From: a virus
Virus genome (UHGV): UHGV-0072536
DNA: 18,794 nt
Direction: 5' to 3' (one strand)
Program-made: the position numbers and the translations under genes
Part shown: positions 471 through 7,285 of the stretch, one piece after another
Layout: every line of letters begins with the position of its first letter
Position numbering within the stretch: the stretch's first letter is position 1
Notes under the pieces: model-generated
What the model was told of the DNA's origin: nothing
The model's database searches: none
Seen by the model: only the letters and a program-made list of their open reading frames with translations

Positions 471-827
471 ATGCTCATAGATTTGGTTTTACCTTACCCG
501 CCGACGGTGAACACTTACTGGCGACGCCGTGGCAGCACATATTTTATCTCGGAGGAGGGAAAGCGTTATCGCCGGGCTGTGGCGCTTATTGTTCGCCAGC
601 AGCAGCTGAAATTAAGCCTGTCCGGAAGGCTGGCGATAAAGGTGATTGCAGAGCCACCGGATAAGCGTCGTCGCGACCTGGACAATATCCTGAAAGCACC
701 GCTGGATGCGCTGACGCATGCGGGAGTGTTAATGGACGATGAGCAGTTTGATGAAATCAATATCGTTCGTGGTCAGCCAGTATCTGGTGGACGTCTGGGG
801 GTGAAGATTTACCCCATAATGCATTAA
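471..827 (+). CDS. rusA: Holliday junction resolvase RusA
   Basis: 118-aa ORF with SD aagagg upstream. Translation aligns over its length with E. coli RusA (LPxPP..N.Y.., RRRDLDN, GGRL motifs). Confidence 0.9.
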   Translation: MLIDLVLPYPPTVNTYWRRRGSTYFISEEGKRYRRAVALIVRQQQLKLSLSGRLAIKVIAEPPDKRRRDLDNILKAPLDALTHAGVLMDDEQFDEINIVRGQPVSGGRLGVKIYPIMH

Positions 828-841
828 GAGCAGGTCAAAAA

Positions 842-1663
842 ATGAAACTGGAAGATTTACCGAAATACTACTCCCCAAAATCCCCCGGCCTGACTGATGC
901 ATCGGCCTCAACGTCGAAAGATGCGCTGAGTATCACTGATGTGATGGCCGCGCAGGGCATGACACAGAATCGGGCTGAGATGGGTTTTTCTGCGTTCCTG
1001 GGGAAAATGGGCATCAGTATGAATGACAGGGCGCGGGCAACAGAATTACTGGCAGATTATGCACTCAGTCGGTGCGATCGTGTGGCGGCGTTGAGAAAAC
1101 TTCCGGCAGAAATAAAACCGGTAGTGATGCGCATTATGGCTTCGTACGCTTTTGAGGATTATGCCCGCAGCGCAGCGAGTAAAAAGCAGTGCCCTTGTTG
1201 CTATGGGGAAAAATTTATTGAAAGCATAGTTTTTACAAACAAGGTCCAGTATCCGGATGGTAAGCCGCCGGTATGGGCAAAGTGTACGAAAGGTGTGTAT
1301 CCGTCTTACTGGGAAGAATGGAAAAAAGTCAGGGAGGTGGTAAAAGTTGCCTGTCCGGAGTGTGGCGGAAAGGGTGAGGTTTCCACCGCCTGTAAGGATT
1401 GCCGTGGGCGTGGTGTCGCCATTCATCGTGAAGAGTCGGTAAAACGTGGTATGCCTGTTATCAGAGACTGCCAGCGTTGTGGTGGTCGTGGCTATGAAAG
1501 ACTACCATCAACGGAGGTATTTAATGCTATATGCGAGGTGACAAACCAGATAACACGCGCGTCATGGGAAAAAACAGTTAAGAAATTCTATGATGCGCTG
1601 GTGACCCGGTTTGATATTGAAGAAGCATGGGCTGAGCGGCAGTTAAAAAAGGTAACTAGGTAA
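842..1663 (+). CDS. Q: Late gene antiterminator Q (lambda Q family, long variant)
   Basis: 273 aa. N-terminus resembles lambda Q (SPKSP, TDVMAA.GM), several CxxC zinc-binding pairs, C-terminal YDALV. Followed immediately by a pR'-like promoter and terminator. Confidence 0.85.
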   Translation: MKLEDLPKYYSPKSPGLTDASASTSKDALSITDVMAAQGMTQNRAEMGFSAFLGKMGISMNDRARATELLADYALSRCDRVAALRKLPAEIKPVVMRIMASYAFEDYARSAASKKQCPCCYGEKFIESIVFTNKVQYPDGKPPVWAKCTKGVYPSYWEEWKKVREVVKVACPECGGKGEVSTACKDCRGRGVAIHREESVKRGMPVIRDCQRCGGRGYERLPSTEVFNAICEVTNQITRASWEKTVKKFYDALVTRFDIEEAWAERQLKKVTR

Positions 1664-1668
1664 CAAGG

Positions 1669-1696
1669 TTGATTTTTCCGGAATCTGTGGTAAATT
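1669..1696 (+). promoter_or_regulatory. Late promoter pR'-like (-35 ttgatt, 16-bp spacer, TG-extended -10 taaatt), overlapping the expected qut region
   Basis: ttgatt at 1669-1674 and tggtaaatt at 1688-1696; the -10 and the downstream ataacgatggg closely resemble the lambda pR' region; sits directly after Q. Confidence 0.7.
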
Positions 1697-1744
1697 CGTC
1701 ATAACGATGGGCTTTTTATGCCTGACGTTAGAAGAGTTTCTACA

Positions 1745-1770
1745 ACCCGCCGCCGAGCGGGTTTTTTATT
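1745..1770 (+). terminator. tR'-like rho-independent terminator ending a short 6S-like leader RNA
   Basis: GC stem acccgc/gcgggt with 6-nt loop followed by ttttttatt, about 45-70 nt downstream of the predicted pR' start. Confidence 0.75.
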
Positions 1771-1806
1771 GCGGAATTAATTACGGACCGTTATTATTCT
1801 GCTCCC

Positions 1807-1882
1807 GGCCCTTTAGCTCAGTGGTGAGAGCGAGCGACTCATAATCGCCAGGTCGCTGGTTCAAATCCAGCAAGGGCCACCA
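1807..1882 (+). tRNA. tRNA with anticodon CAU (Met or lysidine-modified Ile2; ileZ-like phage tRNA)
   Basis: Hand-folded cloverleaf: 7-bp acceptor stem ggccctt/aagggcc, D-stem gctc/gagc, anticodon loop ctCATaa, T-arm gctgg-ttcaaat-ccagc, encoded CCA. Confidence 0.85.
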
Positions 1883-1889
1883 TCACATA

Positions 1890-1966
1890 CCGCCATTAGC
1901 TCATCAGGATAGAGCGCCAGCCTTCGAAGCTGGTTGCGCGGGGTTCGAGTCCTCGATGGCGGTCCA
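1890..1966 (+). tRNA. tRNA-Arg (anticodon UCG)
   Basis: Hand-folded cloverleaf: acceptor ccgccat/atggcgg, D-stem gctc/gagc, anticodon stem ccagc/gctgg with loop ctTCGaa, T-arm cgggg-ttcgagt-cctcg, encoded CCA. Confidence 0.8.
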
Positions 1967-1979
1967 TTATCTGTACCCT

Positions 1980-2056
1980 GCGTTGTTAGCTCAGCCGGAC
2001 AGAGCAATTGCCTTCTAAGCAATCGGTCACTGGTTCGAATCCAGTACAGCGCGCCA
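1980..2056 (+). tRNA. tRNA-Arg (anticodon UCU, reads rare AGA/AGG; argO/argU-like)
   Basis: Hand-folded cloverleaf: acceptor gcgttgt/acagcgc with one G-U pair, D-stem gctc/gagc, anticodon stem attgc/gcaat with loop ctTCTaa, T-arm actgg-ttcgaat-ccagt, encoded CCA. Confidence 0.85.
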
Positions 2057-2166
2057 TATTCATTCTTCCAGATTCCTTCCGGCAGAGCCTTATACTGAAA
2101 TATACCTGGCTCAGGATATTGTTGAAAATATTATATGTTTGTCAAAAATAAAAGTTCTGTTAAGTA

Positions 2167-2520
2167 TTGATTGAGTGTTTGTTATACGGTCTAATGGTTT
2201 TTTCAGCATTAAATATTTATCATTCATATGGTGTGGGTAGAGTGAATATTGATGAGGCGTCGGGGTGTTTCATCCTTAGGCAGCGTATTGATATAGTCAA
2301 TGCAGCACGAGCAAAGGCCTTCAGCCGTTTGACAGTTTTGTTTTGTACTCCTGATCGTCTTTCGGGAAGAGACGTTATTATTCTGAATAGTGATGCTATA
2401 CAAAGGGTTAGCGATGAGTTCATGGTTGCTAATTCAGAATTATTTGCTCTTGTTCAGGAGTACAACAGAATAGCCAGGACCTGTGGTATGGATGAACTTC
2501 GGATTACTCATCTGGGGTAG
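2167..2520 (+). CDS. Hypothetical protein in AT-rich cargo island (doubtful)
   Basis: 117-aa ORF starting at TTG with no convincing SD; low GC; no recognisable motifs. Confidence 0.2.
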   Translation: MIECLLYGLMVFSALNIYHSYGVGRVNIDEASGCFILRQRIDIVNAARAKAFSRLTVLFCTPDRLSGRDVIILNSDAIQRVSDEFMVANSELFALVQEYNRIARTCGMDELRITHLG

Positions 2521-2911
2521 ATACATATCTGGATTATCACCTGTTACGGTAAAAAGTGATTGCTTACTGTTTTTGTGAATGGCATTGCAGCAGCCGGATA
2601 ATGTCAGTGCTGGCTGACGGTGTGCTGGTGGCGGGTGTGGTGGTTGTTGCTTTCCCGTTGCTGAAAAAGAAAACGCCAGACTGTTAGCCGGGTATCAGTT
2701 AGCGGGAGAAATTTTTAAATACTTCACAATTCAGGCGGTTGACTGTTGTCTGGTTTGCGGGGAGTTTGTTAAAAGAAACTGGCATGGTGAATCCCCCTGT
2801 GCGGAGGGGCAATCAGCGAGTAGGTATATGGGATAATCGCGGATTCAGGTGCTGGTACTGAATTCACCGGGAGGCACCCGGCACCATGCAATGGCACATA
2901 GCGCCACTCTC

Positions 2912-2945
2912 CAGCCCCTCTCCGGAGGGGCTGTTTATATTGATT
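2912..2945 (+). terminator. Rho-independent terminator-like hairpin
   Basis: 8-bp GC-rich stem cagcccct/aggggctg with loop ctccgg, followed by T-rich tract tttatattgatttt. Confidence 0.55.
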
Positions 2946-2967
2946 TTGTCAGATGTGAGTAAACTCC

Positions 2968-3303
2968 TTATGGACTTTGTTGTTTTAGTCCATAAGGACA
3001 TATTTGCAGAGTGCAACGGTTATTAAAGCATTCATTCAATACGTTATCTGTATTTGTAGGGCATTCCTGGCTGTTTTTGATTAAATTCCAGAATGTTTTA
3101 TTGAATGGTACTACGTTGTAAATGGTTACAGGTAGCACTTTGTTATTGAGCATGATGCCTGTGTGAGTCAGTGTAAATATACTTTCAGGAGGTAAGAAAG
3201 CATCCGATTGATACCAGATTATTAATTTTATTTTACTCCATATGACTGAAAAAGATATTCCGCATGATGGCTGGATAACTGTATCAATCACAATCCACTT
3301 CAT
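2968..3303 (-). CDS. Hypothetical protein in AT-rich cargo island
   Basis: 111-aa ORF with ATG and a good SD (aaggaa, 5-nt spacing) on the minus strand; Cys-containing, no recognisable family; a perfect 10-bp inverted repeat overlaps its stop (2966-2998). Confidence 0.4.
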
Positions 3304-3548
3304 TTAGTTTCCTTGTTTATGCCTTGCTGGTGATGTTCTGAAAAGTATAAATGATATTTTTGAATGTAAACCATAGAGCAGAATTATTTTTCTGATGTTG
3401 TTTATTGTTTATTTAAATGCAGGGTGGTTTATATCTCGTCTTGTAGTTTATCCATGCATATCTGCTTGATAATCAGGTTTTTATTTAAGGTATGGTTTTG
3501 TGTTTTTTCTGTATTACATGTCAGGTATTTTAAAGAGTTATTTTTCAG

Positions 3549-3752
3549 ATGGTGGAAAGAACCATGGCATTTAAACACTATGATGTTGTCAGGGCGGCGC
3601 CGCCGTCAGATCTTGCGGAAAAGCTGACACATAAACTGAAAGAGGGCTGGCAGCCGTTTGGTAGTCCGGTGGCCATAACCCCTTATACCCTGATGCAGGC
3701 GATTGCAGCAGAAGGTGATGTGGTGGTCAGTGGTGCAACTGAGCCGGAGTGA
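3549..3752 (+). CDS. Small conserved phage protein often found upstream of lambdoid holins (possibly DUF1737-like)
   Basis: 67-aa ORF (alternative start at 3564, MAFKHYDVV); moderate GC; sits between cargo island and holin. Family name is from memory and unverified. Confidence 0.45.
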   Translation: MVERTMAFKHYDVVRAAPPSDLAEKLTHKLKEGWQPFGSPVAITPYTLMQAIAAEGDVVVSGATEPE

Positions 3753-3994
3753 TACTACGTCATCGTACTGGCCCGGCATTCCAGGCCATAAAGGACAGTC
3801 TGGCAGTGGGACTAAATGCACTGACGCTGACGGATATTACCAAAAATGCAACGTATGGCGTTGAGATAGAAAGTCTGGTGCTGGAGATAAATGCACCGGC
3901 ATCATCATAAAAAGTGAGCCAGTCAAATGGAAGGTATCGTTAAACTCACCGGTAGTGTCAGTGGATCGTCTGAGACGCTTGCATGAGTTATCAG

Positions 3995-4028
3995 AGCCAT
4001 CAGTAGTTAACTGGTGGCTTTTTTATTG
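3995..4028 (+). terminator. Rho-independent terminator-like hairpin upstream of holin
   Basis: 9-bp stem agccatcag/ctggtggct (one G-U), 7-nt loop, then ttttttatt; about 30 nt upstream of the holin SD. Confidence 0.55.
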
Positions 4029-4059
4029 TTGTCAGCTTCCGGATAACGGGAGACGGGGT

Positions 4060-4275
4060 ATGGACCAGATGGAAAAAATCACAACAGGTGTGTCATACAC
4101 CACGTCAGCGGTGGGAACGGGCTACTGGTTCCTGCAGTTGCTGGACAGGGTTTCCCCGTCTCAGTGGGCGGCAATAGGCGTGCTGGGGAGTCTGCTGTTT
4201 GGGCTGCTGACATATCTGACTAACCTGTATTTCAAAATCAGAGAGGACCGTCGTAAGGCGGCACGGGGAGAGTAA
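4060..4275 (+). CDS. S: Class II holin / pinholin, phage 21 S-type, with dual-start motif
   Basis: 71 aa beginning MDQMEK; SD gggag upstream. Near-identical over most of its length to S21 pinholin ([21 protein letters not shown]...[22 protein letters not shown]). The track ORF 3955..4275 is an upstream in-frame extension. Confidence 0.9.
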
Positions 4276-4279
4276 TTCA

Positions 4280-4594
4280 ATGACTCAAAACTATGAACTG
4301 ATTGTGAAAGGGATCCGCAATTTTGAGAATAAAGTTACGGTAACTTTAGCGTTACGGGACAAAAAACGCTTTGACGGTGAAATTTTTGACCTGGACATCT
4401 CGCTGGACCGTGTTGAAGGTGCCGCGCTGGAGTTTTATGAGGCAGCAGCCAGAAGGAGCATCAGACAGGTCTTCCTGGATGTTGCTGCCGGGTTATGTGA
4501 AGGGGACGAGCTGTTGCCAGAAACGCGCCCCTGTTCAGAGGCGCGGTATACCATAAAAATTAACAGTTCTGATAACTCGATTACAGGTTGTTAG
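4280..4594 (+). CDS. Hypothetical protein inserted between holin and endolysin
   Basis: 104-aa ORF with ATG 4 nt after the holin stop, SD ggggagag inside the holin 3' end (translational coupling); acidic, no transmembrane segment, no recognisable family. Confidence 0.6.
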   Translation: MTQNYELIVKGIRNFENKVTVTLALRDKKRFDGEIFDLDISLDRVEGAALEFYEAAARRSIRQVFLDVAAGLCEGDELLPETRPCSEARYTIKINSSDNSITGC

Positions 4595-4649
4595 CTTTTT
4601 GCAGTTGGCTTTCCAGTATCTTTCATTGGTAGCATCCTGATAAATATCC

Positions 4650-5183
4650 ATGAGCGCAAAAATCAAATACGGCCTGTCAGCTGCTGTTCTGGCGCTGATT
4701 GCTGCAGGCGCGTCTGCTCCTCAAATACTTGACCAGTTTCTGGATGAAAAAGAGGGTAACCACACTACGGCATACCGCGATGGTTCCGGTATATGGACCA
4801 TCTGTCGTGGTGCCACAATGGTGGATGGTAAGCCCGTCATACCGGGAATGAAGCTGTCGAAGGAAAAATGCGACCAGGTTAACGCTATTGAACGTGATAA
4901 GGCGCTGGCATGGGTGGAGCGCAATATTAAAGTACCACTGACCGAACCACAGAAAGCGGGTATAGCGTCATTCTGTCCCTATAACATTGGCCCCGGTAAG
5001 TGTTTCCCGTCGACGTTTTATAAGCGGCTGAATGCCGGTGATCGTAAGGGCGCATGCGAGGCGATTCGCTGGTGGATAAAAGATGGTGGGCGCGATTGCC
5101 GCATACGTTCAAATAACTGCTATGGACAGGTTATTCGTCGTGACCAGGAAAGCGCATTAGCCTGTTGGGGGATAGATCAGTGA
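4650..5183 (+). CDS. R: SAR endolysin (phage 21 R-type lysozyme, T4-lysozyme/GH24 fold)
   Basis: 177 aa; N-terminal weakly hydrophobic Gly/Ala-rich signal-anchor-release segment ([15 protein letters not shown]), then E...D...T catalytic region ([23 protein letters not shown]); conserved position after a pinholin. Confidence 0.85.
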
Positions 5184-5647
5184 GCAGAGTCGCAGCGATT
5201 ATTTATACTCTGGTTATCTGCACCATCGTCTGCCTGTCATGGGCTGTTAATCATTACCGCGATAACGCCATTACCTACAAAGCCCAGCGCGACAAAAATG
5301 TCAGAGAACTGAAGCTGGCGAACGCGGCAATTACTGACATGCAGATGCGTCAGCGTGATGTTGCTGCGCTCGATGCAAAATACACGAAGGAGTTAGCTGA
5401 TGCGAAAGCTGAAAATGATGCTCTTCTGCGGAAGCTTGATAATGGTGGCAGGGTGCTCGTCAAAGGAAAATGCCCTGTGCCATCCTCAGCCGAAACCTCC
5501 AGCGCCTCCGGCATGGGCAATGATGCCACCGTCGAACTCTCTCCAGTTGCTGGACGAAACGTTCTCGATATCCGGGACGGAATTATCCGCGACCAAACAG
5601 CACTGAGAACGCTTCAGGAATACATTAGGACGCAATGCCTTCGATGA
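5180..5647 (+). CDS. Rz: i-spanin Rz
   Basis: GTG start overlaps the endolysin stop (gtga, 5180-5183); TTG at 5165 is an alternative. N-terminal transmembrane segment then coiled-coil region; aligns with lambda Rz ([20 protein letters not shown]..., [32 protein letters not shown]). Confidence 0.85.
5400..5606 (+). CDS. Rz1: o-spanin Rz1 (outer-membrane lipoprotein) nested in the +1 frame of Rz
   Basis: 68 aa; signal peptide with lipobox (LIMVAGC), proline-rich mature part ([11 protein letters not shown]); entirely inside Rz in another frame, as in lambda. Confidence 0.8.
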
Positions 5648-5822
5648 TAGCGATAATTTTACTCATCATCCTTCACATCTGGCTCTGTAGACAGGGTGGT
5701 GATCACTTCTGGAGTAAATCCAGATTAAACATCTCATTGCTGATGCTTGATATTGAGCATCTGGCGCGCAGTAAGGGGCTGCGTTGAGATAAGAGCCAGT
5801 TCATTACAAATACCAGGATTTA

Positions 5823-5846
5823 GCCTCGCATTCGCGGGGCTTTTTA
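5823..5846 (+). terminator. Rho-independent terminator-like hairpin downstream of the lysis cassette
   Basis: 7-bp stem gcctcgc/gcggggc (one G-U), 4-nt loop, then ttttt. Confidence 0.5.
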
Positions 5847-5989
5847 TATCTGAATTTCACAGCGCATCTCACGCGCATATTAACGAGAGCCTTTCAGTAA
5901 GCGAGCCTGAGAAATGCCGTTATAGGTGGCGACCTCTCTCGGGCGGCTTTTCTGTGAGACAGGCTCACTTTCTAAAAGGTAAAGACGCT

Positions 5990-6514
5990 ATGAATAATCA
6001 TTCAGTTATTCCAGCCTTCGACTTCCGAGAAATGGTGCAAGCCAAAAACGGAGAGGTCGTTACCACATCCAGAAAAATTGCCAAGTACTTCGGCAAGCGA
6101 CACGGTGATGTTCTCAGGAAAATCGAGCAGGTTAAGGCTGATTGCTCGCGTGAGTTTAGCCAACGCAATTTTGCGTCGGCTGATTATATCGATGAGCAGG
6201 GCAAGGTTCGACCGATGTACAGCCTGACGAAAGATGGCTGGATCATGGTTGTGATGGGGTTCACCGGGAAAGCTGCTGCGGCAATCAAGGAGAGCTATAT
6301 CGCAGCATTCAACTGGATGGCAGAGCAACTGAGCCGCCGCATGGCAATTGGCGAAGAAATGCAGCACCGCTACGCCATCAAAGAAACACGCTCAAAGCTG
6401 AAAGGTACGATCGGCGGTCGGTTAATGAACGAACGGAAGAAAGAGAAGCGTGTCCTGGCTGTCGAGCATGAATACATCTTGCAGGTGACACAGCCTGAAC
6501 TGCTGATTAATTGA
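5990..6514 (+). CDS. rha: Rha-family phage regulatory protein (antirepressor-like)
   Basis: 174 aa from ATG at 5990 (SD aaagg upstream); N-terminal Rha signature EVVTTSRKIAKYFGKRHGDVLRKIE. The track ORF from 5747 is an upstream in-frame extension spanning a terminator. Confidence 0.7.
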   Translation: MNNHSVIPAFDFREMVQAKNGEVVTTSRKIAKYFGKRHGDVLRKIEQVKADCSREFSQRNFASADYIDEQGKVRPMYSLTKDGWIMVVMGFTGKAAAAIKESYIAAFNWMAEQLSRRMAIGEEMQHRYAIKETRSKLKGTIGGRLMNERKKEKRVLAVEHEYILQVTQPELLIN

Positions 6515-6817
6515 AGATGTCATTACAAAGCCTATCTACGGGGGGGCTTGATAATGGCTTATACCCTGCACGGGATAACTTAACTGATATCCCTTTTAAC
6601 GGATAAAGGTATTCAAGCCTGACACATCATGCGCTGTATCGTCGCCGTATTCCCGCATTAACCATGACCGTAGCCCGACGGGGAATTCCTTCTGCGTGAG
6701 TGTGCGGGAATAATCAAAAACGATGCACACCGGGTTATTAACGCGTCAACTGAACGCGGGGTTGCTCTTCATGTCAGCCAGTCCGGTGCAGGGGTAGAAG
6801 AAACCGGACGTTATGGT

Positions 6818-7228
6818 TTAGTGTGGAAACATTTGTGATGTGCTCTGTATGTTTTCAGTAAAGAGTAATGAATTATCAAAGGTATAGTAATATCTTTTTT
6901 GTTCGTGGATATTTGTAACCCACCGAAAAACTCCTGCTTTAGCAAGGTTTCTTCTGTATTCCTGAAATGTGATCTCTCTGGATTTCAGCTTATTAGAGGT
7001 CGTTTCTATAAGATGCCTATCCTTTGAAAATTTGACAGACACAATGTTTTTTAGGCCCTTTAATAACACTGTATTATCATTTTTTAATACAATATGAACA
7101 TTCTCTGTGGCTAAATAGTAAATGTAATGTGAGACATTGTGACGTTTTAGCTCAGAATAAAACCATTGATAGTTTAAATCGTTTCGAACTTTATCAAATA
7201 TTTGTTTAAAAATGACTACCTGATCCAT
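6818..7228 (-). CDS. Conserved lambda right-end ORF homolog (possibly DUF1398-like)
   Basis: 136 aa from [11 protein letters not shown]; AT-rich; strongly similar to the minus-strand ORF near the right end of phage lambda as recalled. Family name is from memory. Confidence 0.65.
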
Positions 7229-7285
7229 AGATAAACCTTCCATGTGATATGAGGGGGCGTAGTCTGCACGATTATCTAAATTGCT

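Follow-up and report, generated by a model that had tools for sequence, protein, structure and literature searches.

Which genes occupy the AT-rich stretch between the Q-tRNA block and the lysis genes of this lambda-like prophage, and do they belong together? We analysed positions 2057-3548 of a window of 18,794 nucleotides (the whole stretch of viral DNA, one strand) computationally. A first-pass annotation, made from the sequence alone, had described this interval as an AT-rich cargo island in the place where Stx phages carry stxAB, containing two orphan ORFs and several strong hairpins. This description is correct in outline: the stretch really is a slot for cargo in a lambda-like Escherichia coli prophage. 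Its content is a composite of known parts and not one island of orphans. Very probably a lambdoid prophage has its variable cargo slot here, reaching from Q-pR'-tR'-tRNAs to the lysis genes, and this slot holds two independently acquired cassettes, cassette A and iraL.

Composition of the interval

At 39.3%, the GC content of the interval lies below that of the window as a whole (52.1%) and of the left (50.2%) and right (48.9%) flanks, so that the markedly lower GC reported before is confirmed. It is the stretch of 1492 bp with the lowest GC in the 18.8 kb and lies approximately 2.3 SD under the sliding-window mean. AT-richness is not uniform, however: the outer parts have 38.1% (2057-2555) and 32.2% GC (2968-3548), whereas the middle (2556-2967) is ordinary with 50.7%. 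Both ORFs are present where they had been drawn. They are not the only content, since a gene for a 43-aa DUF3927 peptide and an STnc100-family sRNA of 190 nt also lie inside, and the ORF on the minus strand encodes IraL (Table 1). Three of the hairpins (2794-2809, 2868-2882 and the terminator at 2912-2933) are parts of the sRNA.

Table 1. Features of the cargo slot and its flanks (positions in the window).
Feature	Position	Strand	Evidence and remarks
Q	842-1663		PF03589, E 8.6e-55; 273 aa with DnaJ-like zinc finger
tR'-like intrinsic terminator, downstream of Q, start of late operon	1744..1763	+	terminator scan: 7-bp stem, then TTTTATTG
Three tRNA genes, Ile/Met-CAU, Arg-UCG, Arg-UCU	1807..2056	+	ARAGORN, Rfam
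AT-rich spacer, last tRNA to first cargo gene	2057..2166	+	31.8% GC
ORF1 as first drawn	2167..2520	+	TTG start, 117 aa
Probable true CDS of ORF1, phrog_2873 family	2242..2520	+	GTG start, 92 aa; phrog_2873, E 5.5e-57
DUF3927/TciB-like peptide gene	2556..2687	+	43 aa, one hydrophobic helix; missed by the first-pass annotation
STnc100-family structured sRNA	2753..2942	+	190 nt; Rfam RF02076
Intrinsic terminator, 3' end of STnc100 and of the plus-strand cassette	2912..2933	+	9-bp stem, 7 GC pairs, then TTTATATTGATTTT
iraL, RssB anti-adaptor, paralog of IraM	2968..3303	-	
iraL 5' UTR	3304..3336	-	33 nt; published 5'-RACE string ACATCACCAGCAAGGCATAAACAAGGAAAC, first base at 3336
iraL sigma-70 promoter	3344..3370	-	-10 TATACT 3344-3349; -35-like TTTACA 3365-3370
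iraL cassette as insertion unit	2943..3562	-	about 0.62 kb, 32% GC; between STnc100 and nanS-p start
Two small ORFs, N- and C-terminal remnants of the nanS-p/yjhS esterase gene	3549-3752, 3749-3910	+	

The interval occupies the cargo slot of Stx phages

The location between Q and the lysis genes was confirmed: Q, a tR'-like terminator and three tRNA genes precede the interval, and a P21-type holin, lysozyme and Rz follow it. The tRNA block corresponds to ileZ-argN-argO of Stx phages, and window positions 1767-2064 are 94% identical to 933W 3081-3380. Two weak Rfam matches at pR'-tR' (Trp_leader with 25 bits and isrK with 18 bits, both sub-threshold) were regarded as matches to the terminator hairpin. 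In 933W stxB2 ends at 4703 and is followed 75 nt on by STnc100 (4778-4983) and then by nanS-p. Here STnc100 trails the plus-strand cargo as it trails stxB2 there, and the cargo is flanked by the ileZ-argN-argO tRNAs, downstream of Q, and by STnc100, upstream of nanS-p/holin. The data thus agree with the proposal that cargo (a moron region) sits at the stx-equivalent position. Because STnc100 sits 75 nt after stxB2 in 933W, the true stx-equivalent slot is 2057-2752. The slot is empty in phi296, where STnc100 directly follows the tRNAs. The STEC version of the cassette is homologous from approximately 2165 on. As noted before, stx genes are absent: neither the ORFs of the interval nor the annotations of identical loci include stx.

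The plus-strand genes

ORF1 is a real gene under purifying selection. Compared with a 55%-identical homolog its dN/dS is 0.27 in frame, while the shifted frames give approximately 1 and contain 7-15 stops. The profile match together with this coding evidence places it in the phrog_2873 family. Contigs of STEC keep the order phrog_2873 homolog, small ORF, STnc100, and a prophage of Citrobacter braakii carries a family member in the same tRNA-to-lysis slot (one locus, found in a two-member alignment search). RefSeq/PGAP annotation of ORF1 is lacking in about 1,185 complete genomes, which are almost all carriers. Searches of Pfam, NCBIfam and PADLOC returned no match for ORF1, and the best PDB hit by sequence profile had an E value of only 0.61. 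AlphaFold2 predicts helices at residues 28-60 and 75-106, which would form a helical hairpin; a Foldseek comparison of this model with the PDB yielded only generic helical hairpins (best E 0.25, none at 1e-3). No convincing sigma-70 promoter or Shine-Dalgarno sequence was found for this gene. The DUF3927 peptide downstream matches PF13064 (E 1.7e-27, 95.6 bits against a gathering score of 25) and phrog_1470 (E 7.8e-13), and its gene is annotated by PGAP in strains 042 and CFT073.

The STnc100-family RNA matches RF02076 with 132.4 bits (E 2.8e-30, model positions 1-206), which is 85 bits above the gathering score of 47. The consensus fold of 10 copies has 30 pairs, six of them with compensatory changes, and invariant hairpins, showing that the structure is conserved; most of the core pairs are invariant and hence uninformative. 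The minimum free energy is -74.6 kcal/mol (z -2.4). No promoter for STnc100 was identified upstream of 2753. On the minus strand PGAP has a pseudogene for a "hypothetical protein" (2772-2897); it matches no family and overlaps the sRNA, and we treated it as spurious. For other copies of STnc100, detection by RT-PCR in STEC vesicles has been reported; no copy has an experimentally established target.

The minus-strand gene is iraL

No function had been assigned to either ORF, yet all 111 residues encoded by the minus-strand ORF are identical to those of the characterised IraL of E. coli CFT073 (WP_000871291.1/c1429; PMC4045071). The protein matches the NCBIfam model of IraM (NF007393) over its full length (162 bits, cut-off 121, E 4.7e-48) and is 62% identical to K-12 IraM over 107 residues; the IraM structure PDB 8twd is found with an E value of 9e-32. 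Among the nine RssB-contact residues listed for IraM, that is clusters I and II of the IraM-RssB crystal structure, eight are the same in IraL (I4, I6, W22, K26, I42, C14, F18, W30) and T13 is replaced by S. The good Shine-Dalgarno sequence seen before is AAGGA, 6 nt before the ATG.

The 1.5 kb are 99.5% identical to CFT073, with eight base differences; in the region of the iraL promoter and UTR only positions 3306 (UTR) and 3337 (-1 of the promoter) differ. The -10 and -35 hexamers are our own reading of the sequence, and the sigma-70 assignment is taken from PMC4045071. Inspection by eye for a PhoP box upstream of iraL gave only a single GGTTTA half-site, so that PhoP control is not proposed. 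The genes of the interval had been expected to be expressed from the Q-dependent late transcript or from their own promoters in the lysogen. For iraL the latter holds, with the 5'-RACE start at 3336, but the former does not, because the gene lies on the opposite strand.

Experiments have established IraL as an anti-adaptor of RssB by which RpoS is kept stable during log phase (Hryckowian et al., 2014; PMC4045071). Without iraL, RpoS levels in log phase are lower both in CFT073 and in S. sonnei. The RpoS half-life, measured in CFT073 only, falls from approximately 5 to approximately 2.5 min on deletion, and supplying iraL together with its native promoter (-100 to +33) brings it back. Binding of RssB, demonstrated like the effect on RpoS level for CFT073 IraL and S. 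sonnei iraL, was seen as co-purification and in a two-hybrid assay, and the iraL promoter of CFT073 is a sigma-70 promoter active in log phase (PMC4045071). We infer that the copy in this window is likewise expressed and active.

Borders and distribution of the two cassettes

Compared with phage JLK-2012, homology breaks at window position 2898 and returns at 3571, and the gap between STnc100 and yjhS is 673 bp here versus 171 bp there. As in the moron definition of Hendrix, iraL thus is an insertion of deviant composition, which separates two elements that are neighbours in related phages, and it has its own promoter (5'-RACE start sequence at 3336, TATACT -10). A terminator scan of the minus strand at 2700-2968 found no terminator-like site after iraL; the T-tract of the hairpin at 2912-2933 lies on the plus strand only. 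The stop codon of iraL and the 3' end of STnc100 are convergent and only 25 nt apart. On the other side of iraL, the nanS-p remnants correspond to positions 1-58 and 582-632 of the 634 positions of phrog_143, which leaves an internal deletion of approximately 1.5 kb. Window positions 3571-3783 and 3768-4276 match yjhS of JLK-2012 at 3983-4195 and 5687-6195, respectively, and PGAP marks the first remnant ORF as a pseudogene.

The same 1.5 kb are present in 863 of 5,426 complete E. coli genomes. Altogether, 1,185 of these genomes carry the ORF1 block, 1,446 the iraL block and 863 both; approximately 2,800 genomes match at least some part. Phage mEp460 has the left cassette (97% identical) without iraL, and strain KMi012 has iraL without ORF1. 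With such differing prevalences and contexts the interval, previously taken as one island, consists of at least two cassettes with independent distribution. The conserved STnc100 core is a recurrent junction of cassettes, and the junction sequence at which the three blocks (ORF1, STnc100, iraL) may assort is CACCATGC. Some records that carry iraL belong to the vB_EcoS-...R series. Mobilisation by viable phages is not claimed from these records; the only paper found to name them deals with phages located in the genomes of clinical isolates, which suggests predicted prophages.

Proposed explanation and alternatives

Identities, boundaries, purifying selection and population frequencies were computed here. 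In our proposal, cassette A (2057-2942, plus strand) fills the place that stxAB has in 933W. It encodes a predicted helical protein of approximately 92 aa (phrog_2873), the 43-aa DUF3927/TciB-like peptide and the STnc100-family sRNA, the 3' hairpin of which is the terminator of the whole cassette. Because cassette A is co-oriented with the late operon, Q-modified RNA polymerase would read its genes from the late transcript on induction. Cassette B (approximately 2943-3562, minus strand, 32% GC) is iraL, with its own sigma-70 promoter, from which transcription would begin at 3336. IraL binds the adaptor RssB, which prevents the handover of RpoS to ClpXP and stabilises RpoS in exponential growth. 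iraL is thus probably a lysogenic-conversion gene that rewires the general stress response of the host. On induction, late transcription might run antisense across iraL and dampen it.

The low GC and the small frames could also be explained by decayed prophage DNA, with chance frames or pseudogenes and non-coding remnants. The first-pass annotation had named such a lack of homologs and such degraded remnants as an outcome that would speak against it. Inside the interval this is not what was found, although the adjoining 3549-3910 truly is an internally deleted nanS-p gene, ORF1 is unannotated by PGAP in almost all genomes and a partial pseudogene is annotated on the minus strand. The iraL product, however, is identical to a protein of demonstrated function, ORF1 is under purifying selection with full-length homologs down to 33% identity, the sRNA is far above the Rfam threshold, and the 1.5 kb are at least 99% conserved across hundreds of genomes. 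Decay is already largely refuted by these data and has hardly any probability left. A second point concerns the size of the ORF1 product. The open frame that had been drawn is confirmed, but not its TTG start at 2167: translation probably starts at the GTG at 2242, and approximately 25 first codons probably are untranslated. With a start at the TTG, the product would have 117 aa and a hydrophobic segment at its N-terminus. Such a start is compatible with the frame, which is open from there, with the STEC homolog, which likewise opens with TTG ATT GA at the aligned position, and with products of 113-118 aa from several gene callers. Nevertheless we regard it as improbable, because the first 24 codons are near-neutral (dN/dS 0.81 versus 0.27 for the remainder), the N-terminal hydrophobicity is not conserved in the homolog, and the segment is modelled as disordered (pLDDT <50 for residues 1-25, 70 for the whole model). 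In addition, the more distant members are 91-95 aa long and align from profile position ~24, among them the Citrobacter gene, which starts with ATG and encodes 95 aa.

It might further be argued that the iraL copy is silent or redundant in its host and the island without phenotype. The cassette has 29-35% GC, a composition typical of xenogeneically silenced DNA. Compared with CFT073, the promoter is changed by one base at -1 and the UTR by another, and iraL promoter variants of unknown activity occur in other strains (PMC4045071). On the other hand, the -10 and -35 elements are the same as in CFT073, where the native promoter works during log phase and allows complementation of the deletion, and iraL mRNA responds there to temperature and loss of Fur and hence is not silent. 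Silence of this copy seems to us quite improbable. The same small chance is given to a more far-reaching reading, in one of two forms. The phrog_2873 protein and the DUF3927 peptide might form a novel module for lysogenic conversion or phage exclusion, placed exactly in the stx slot of approximately one fifth of E. coli genomes. Alternatively, iraL mRNA may run antisense into STnc100, because iraL lacks its own terminator and the two are convergent and so close to each other; this would put the iraL mRNA, STnc100 and Q-dependent late transcription under reciprocal control and, if true, would couple the induction state of the prophage to RpoS stability.

The two-cassette slot, which we prefer, contains nothing new in kind: IraL, STnc100 and DUF3927 have already been described or catalogued. 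The additions are modest, namely a precise map of the cassette boundaries with the STnc100 core as recurrent junction, the recognition that a lambdoid prophage carries iraL, with STnc100 on one side and a deleted nanS-p on the other, and a conserved, selected small gene (2242-2520) missed by RefSeq. The toxin slot of Stx-type phages is thereby shown to be a general exchange site, which in non-Stx prophages holds a host stress-response regulator (iraL), small RNAs and small proteins; roughly one in four complete E. coli genomes has iraL in this slot.

Comparison with known systems

One of the closest counterparts is the stxAB slot of 933W, with which the order Q, pR'/tR', ileZ-argN-argO, cargo, STnc100, nanS-p, holin is shared and the holin is 93% identical. 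Unlike 933W, the window has the phrog_2873 gene and DUF3927 in place of stxAB, iraL instead of the AsxR region after STnc100, an internally deleted nanS-p and a Q protein of another type (273 aa with the DnaJ-like zinc finger). The tciA-tciB cassette of JLK-2012 lies in the same slot and likewise combines a DUF3927 gene with an STnc100 sRNA (both 93% identical), but its upstream partner is TerB-like, whereas it is the phrog_2873 protein here.

The STnc100/PasD family of prophage sRNAs (RF02076; Zhu, Shabalina and Storz, 2026, preprint) is matched over the full length of the model. Shared are the conserved long-range helix GCAUGGUG/CACCAUGC, two invariant GC hairpins and the location between Q and holin in lambdoid prophages; copies differ from one another in the variable arm at the centre and in the 3' tail. 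Like the lambda morons bor and lom, which are expressed in the lysogen, iraL stands out in composition, has its own promoter and sits between genes that are neighbours in related phages; in contrast to them it has no recognisable intrinsic terminator on its strand. K-12 IraM (b1160, beside prophage e14; PDB 8twd) shares the RssB-contact residues and the NCBIfam family, but homology to iraL is confined to the coding region, with unrelated promoters and flanks. IraM is induced through PhoPQ at low Mg2+, whereas IraL acts in log phase and reportedly contacts RssB differently. The IraL locus of CFT073 (c1429; PMC4045071) has the identical protein, transcription start sequence and prophage position. 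It differs by an IS200C between Q and the tRNAs, which is absent from the window; late transcription may thus fail to reach the slot in CFT073.

Composition and Setting of the AT-Rich Interval

The region is the start of the late operon of a lambdoid prophage. The interval under study (window 2057-3548, 1492 bp) shares 100% identity with E. coli 042 and 99.5% with CFT073. The window matches the 042 prophage with 99% identity up to 4531; identity is 91% over 4634-5418, and past that point the two are unrelated, with a Rha-like gene in the place of an HNH endonuclease in 042; the window therefore represents a related mosaic prophage, not 042 itself.

Features of the AT-rich interval and its surroundings (window coordinates)
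Feature	Position	Strand	Remarks
DUF968 gene, end			upstream of interval
rusA	471-827		upstream of interval
Q antiterminator (273 aa)	842-1663		PF03589, E 8.6e-55
tR'-like terminator	1744-1763		after Q
three tRNA genes	1807-2056		after tR'-like terminator
phrog_2873 gene	2167-2520	plus	phrog_2873, E 5.5e-57
DUF3927 gene (43 aa)	2556-2687	plus	PF13064, E 1.7e-27
STnc100	2753-2942	plus	RF02076, E 2.8e-30
STnc100 long-range helix	2782-2789, 2883-2890	plus	GCAUGGUG with CACCAUGC
STnc100 invariant GC hairpins (two)	2794-2809, 2868-2882	plus
STnc100 variable arm		plus
STnc100 intrinsic terminator	2912-2933	plus
iraL	2968-3303	minus	NF007393
nanS-p remnant ORFs	3549-3752, 3749-3910		DUF1737; 53 aa
P21-type holin, DUF1327 gene, lysozyme, Rz			after interval, in that order
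Rha-like gene	5747-6514		beyond Rz
DUF1398 gene (141 aa)	6818-7243	minus	PF07166, E 1.7e-46; between lysis and terminase genes
terminase Nu1/gpA, lambda-type portal, S49 protease, major capsid protein			beyond Rz

The low GC content noticed in the first-pass annotation is real (39.3% against 52.1% for the whole window, the lowest 1492-bp stretch of the 18.8 kb), and windowed analysis splits the dip in two: 38.1% at 2057-2555 and 32.2% at 2968-3548, with an ordinary 50.7% at 2556-2967 between them. The coordinates of both annotated ORFs and the absence of stx genes from the interval were also confirmed, but the inventory of two ORFs and hairpins had overlooked the DUF3927 gene and a structured RNA.

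Downstream of Q, window 1660-1770 holds a short pR'-to-tR' unit (TTGATT, a 16-nt spacer, TAAATT preceded by TG, and the terminator) that would yield an RNA of approximately 60-70 nt; the layout resembles that of short RNAs made from late promoters in other lambdoid phages, and Rfam gave only sub-threshold matches (Trp_leader 25 bits, isrK 18 bits). In the iraL-bearing prophage of CFT073 an IS200C transposase lies between Q and the tRNAs (locus L004, 1647-2105), which may keep late transcription from reaching the slot; the window is without such an insertion.

The Minus-Strand ORF Encodes the Anti-Adaptor IraL

The minus-strand ORF, previously regarded as an orphan of no assignable function, is identified by sequence as iraL, a published and functionally characterised anti-adaptor gene, and is the main gene of the region. 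Its product scores 162 bits against NCBIfam NF007393 ("anti-adapter protein IraM", cut-off 121), is 62% identical to K-12 IraM, matches the IraM chain of PDB 8twd (E 9e-32) and equals the CFT073 protein at 111/111 amino acids, with the same RefSeq entry in 042 and CFT073 (WP_000871291.1). Of the nine RssB-contact residues listed for clusters I and II of IraM, IraL retains eight; the ninth is changed from T to S. The CFT073 gene, c1429, was described as iraL by Hryckowian et al. [quoted passage not shown]

The published 5'-RACE sequence ACATCACCAGCAAGGCATAAACAAGGAAAC is present on the minus strand, beginning at 3336. Given this start, the leader is 33 nt long and a -10 element, TATACT, lies at 3344-3349. 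Two of the eight base differences between the window and CFT073 are near the start of iraL, at 3337 (position -1) and 3306 (UTR). Homology to the K-12 iraM locus is confined to the coding region and the flanks are unrelated, consistent with the reported different regulation of the two genes. In the lysogen, iraL would be transcribed from its own sigma-70 promoter, and IraL would sequester RssB and so spare RpoS from ClpXP during growth; this action was shown for the identical CFT073 gene, and we infer it for the window copy. Of 5,426 complete E. coli genomes, 1,446 carry the gene together with its promoter, in as many as three copies each.

A second AT-rich patch (window approximately 6450-7250, about 31-33% GC) holds the DUF1398 gene. 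YcgX, a DUF1398 family member, is encoded approximately 0.7 kb from iraM in K-12, so paralogs of these two K-12 neighbours occupy separate cargo slots in the window.

Next to iraL, the ORFs at 3549-3910 are, by profile and alignment, the N- and C-terminal remains of a nanS-p gene (yjhS, SASA esterase) with an internal deletion of approximately 1.5 kb. In the 634-position NanS-p profile phrog_143 they cover positions 1-58 and 582-632, and in alignment they correspond to the ends of JLK-2012 yjhS, with a gap of approximately 1.5 kb between them; the deletion junction is at about 3768-3783. In each of the five further loci inspected, iraL is likewise found with the deleted form.

STnc100, a Possible Joint Between Cassettes

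The strong hairpins of the first-pass annotation belong to STnc100, a catalogued prophage sRNA family that is PasD-related and without an established target. The sequence covers the whole Rfam model with 132.4 bits (gathering score 47). Ten copies, drawn from the window and from five further loci of phages or prophages, gave a common fold with six compensatory pairs, and the window copy has a folding energy of -74.6 kcal/mol (z -2.4). PGAP places a partial "hypothetical protein" pseudogene at 2772-2897 (minus) in 042, CFT073 and others; it is probably spurious, since it lies antisense inside STnc100 and matches no family.

Homology to phage JLK-2012 covers window 2588-2898 (the DUF3927-STnc100 core, 93%), breaks and resumes at 3571, so that 673 bp with iraL replace 171 bp; iraL therefore forms a separate AT-rich insert of about 0.62 kb. 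Homology to mEp460 stops at 2890, within the conserved CACCATGC helix of STnc100. Homology between different phages breaks in this helix, and the sRNA core looks like a recurrent recombination joint for cassette exchange. In STEC1585 the slot contains four copies of STnc100, of which three are in tandem (L009 4075-4287, 6047-6242, 6306-6505, 6567-6756), and the iraL-bearing vB_EcoS-640R1 has two (L002 3165-3358, 3634-3822).

Judged by their distribution, cassette A (2057-2942, including STnc100) and cassette B (approximately 2943-3562, iraL) assort independently. Of the 5,426 genomes, 1,185 carry the ORF 2167-2520 block, 1,446 carry the iraL block and 863 have the whole interval; in mEp460 cassette A occurs alone, and strain KMi012 has iraL and lacks the ORF.

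Cassette A has the same orientation as the late operon, and on induction it should be transcribed by Q-modified polymerase, which does not stop at terminators. Such transcription would cross iraL in antisense, which is speculation. Equally speculative, iraL mRNA might run antisense into STnc100, because the terminator scan found no minus-strand terminator after iraL.

A Conserved Small Gene Occupies the Slot

ORF 2167-2520 matched nothing in Pfam, NCBIfam or PADLOC and is without PGAP annotation, but homologs and codon-level conservation show it to be a real gene. The frame is kept in a 55%-identical STEC homolog (mismatches 36/33/56 by codon position, dN/dS 0.35), whereas the two shifted frames give dN/dS of about 1 and 7-15 stops. 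Exhaustive profile search found further relatives of 91-95 aa (33-41% identity); the member from a Citrobacter braakii prophage has tRNAs on one side and a TerB-like gene, a DUF3927-like gene and the lysis cassette on the other. Translation likely starts at the conserved GTG 2242, giving 92 aa, because the first 24 codons are nearly neutral (dN/dS 0.81; remainder 0.27), not conserved in character, disordered in the model and upstream of the starts of all distant homologs. The AlphaFold2 prediction (pLDDT 70) is a hairpin of two helices that turns at the invariant FSRLTVLFCTPDR motif; a Foldseek search with this model returned nothing specific. Among 20 RefSeq records spaced evenly over the 1,185 matches to window 2160-2520, 18 leave the gene unannotated, which suggests that annotation systematically misses this small gene under selection.

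The adjacent DUF3927 peptide is TciB-like in PHROGs, a name that is annotation and not a tested function.

Comparison With Stx Phages and Related Prophages

The DUF3927-STnc100 pair recurs downstream of differing partner genes, such as TerB-like tciA in JLK-2012. In mEp460 and STEC1585 a gene named "TolA" is present elsewhere in the same slot. STEC prophages carry in this slot a 241-aa AraC-type regulator (PF12833) directly before the phrog_2873 homolog (L007 164-889; L009 4664-5389); it is missing from the window.

The earlier reading of a cargo region placed like stx is correct relative to Stx phages. The Stx2 phage 933W, whose tRNA block shares 94% identity with the window's, has the order tRNAs (to 3372), stxA2B2 (3463-4703), STnc100 (4778-4983), AsxR on the opposite strand, nanS-p and holin; STnc100 starts 75 nt after stxB2, as also in PMC12370729. 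In phi296 STnc100 directly follows the tRNAs, an empty slot. Since the tRNAs match and STnc100 follows either stxB2 or the tRNAs, the stx-equivalent slot corresponds to window 2057-2752, and by gene order iraL lies one position past it, between STnc100 and nanS-p.
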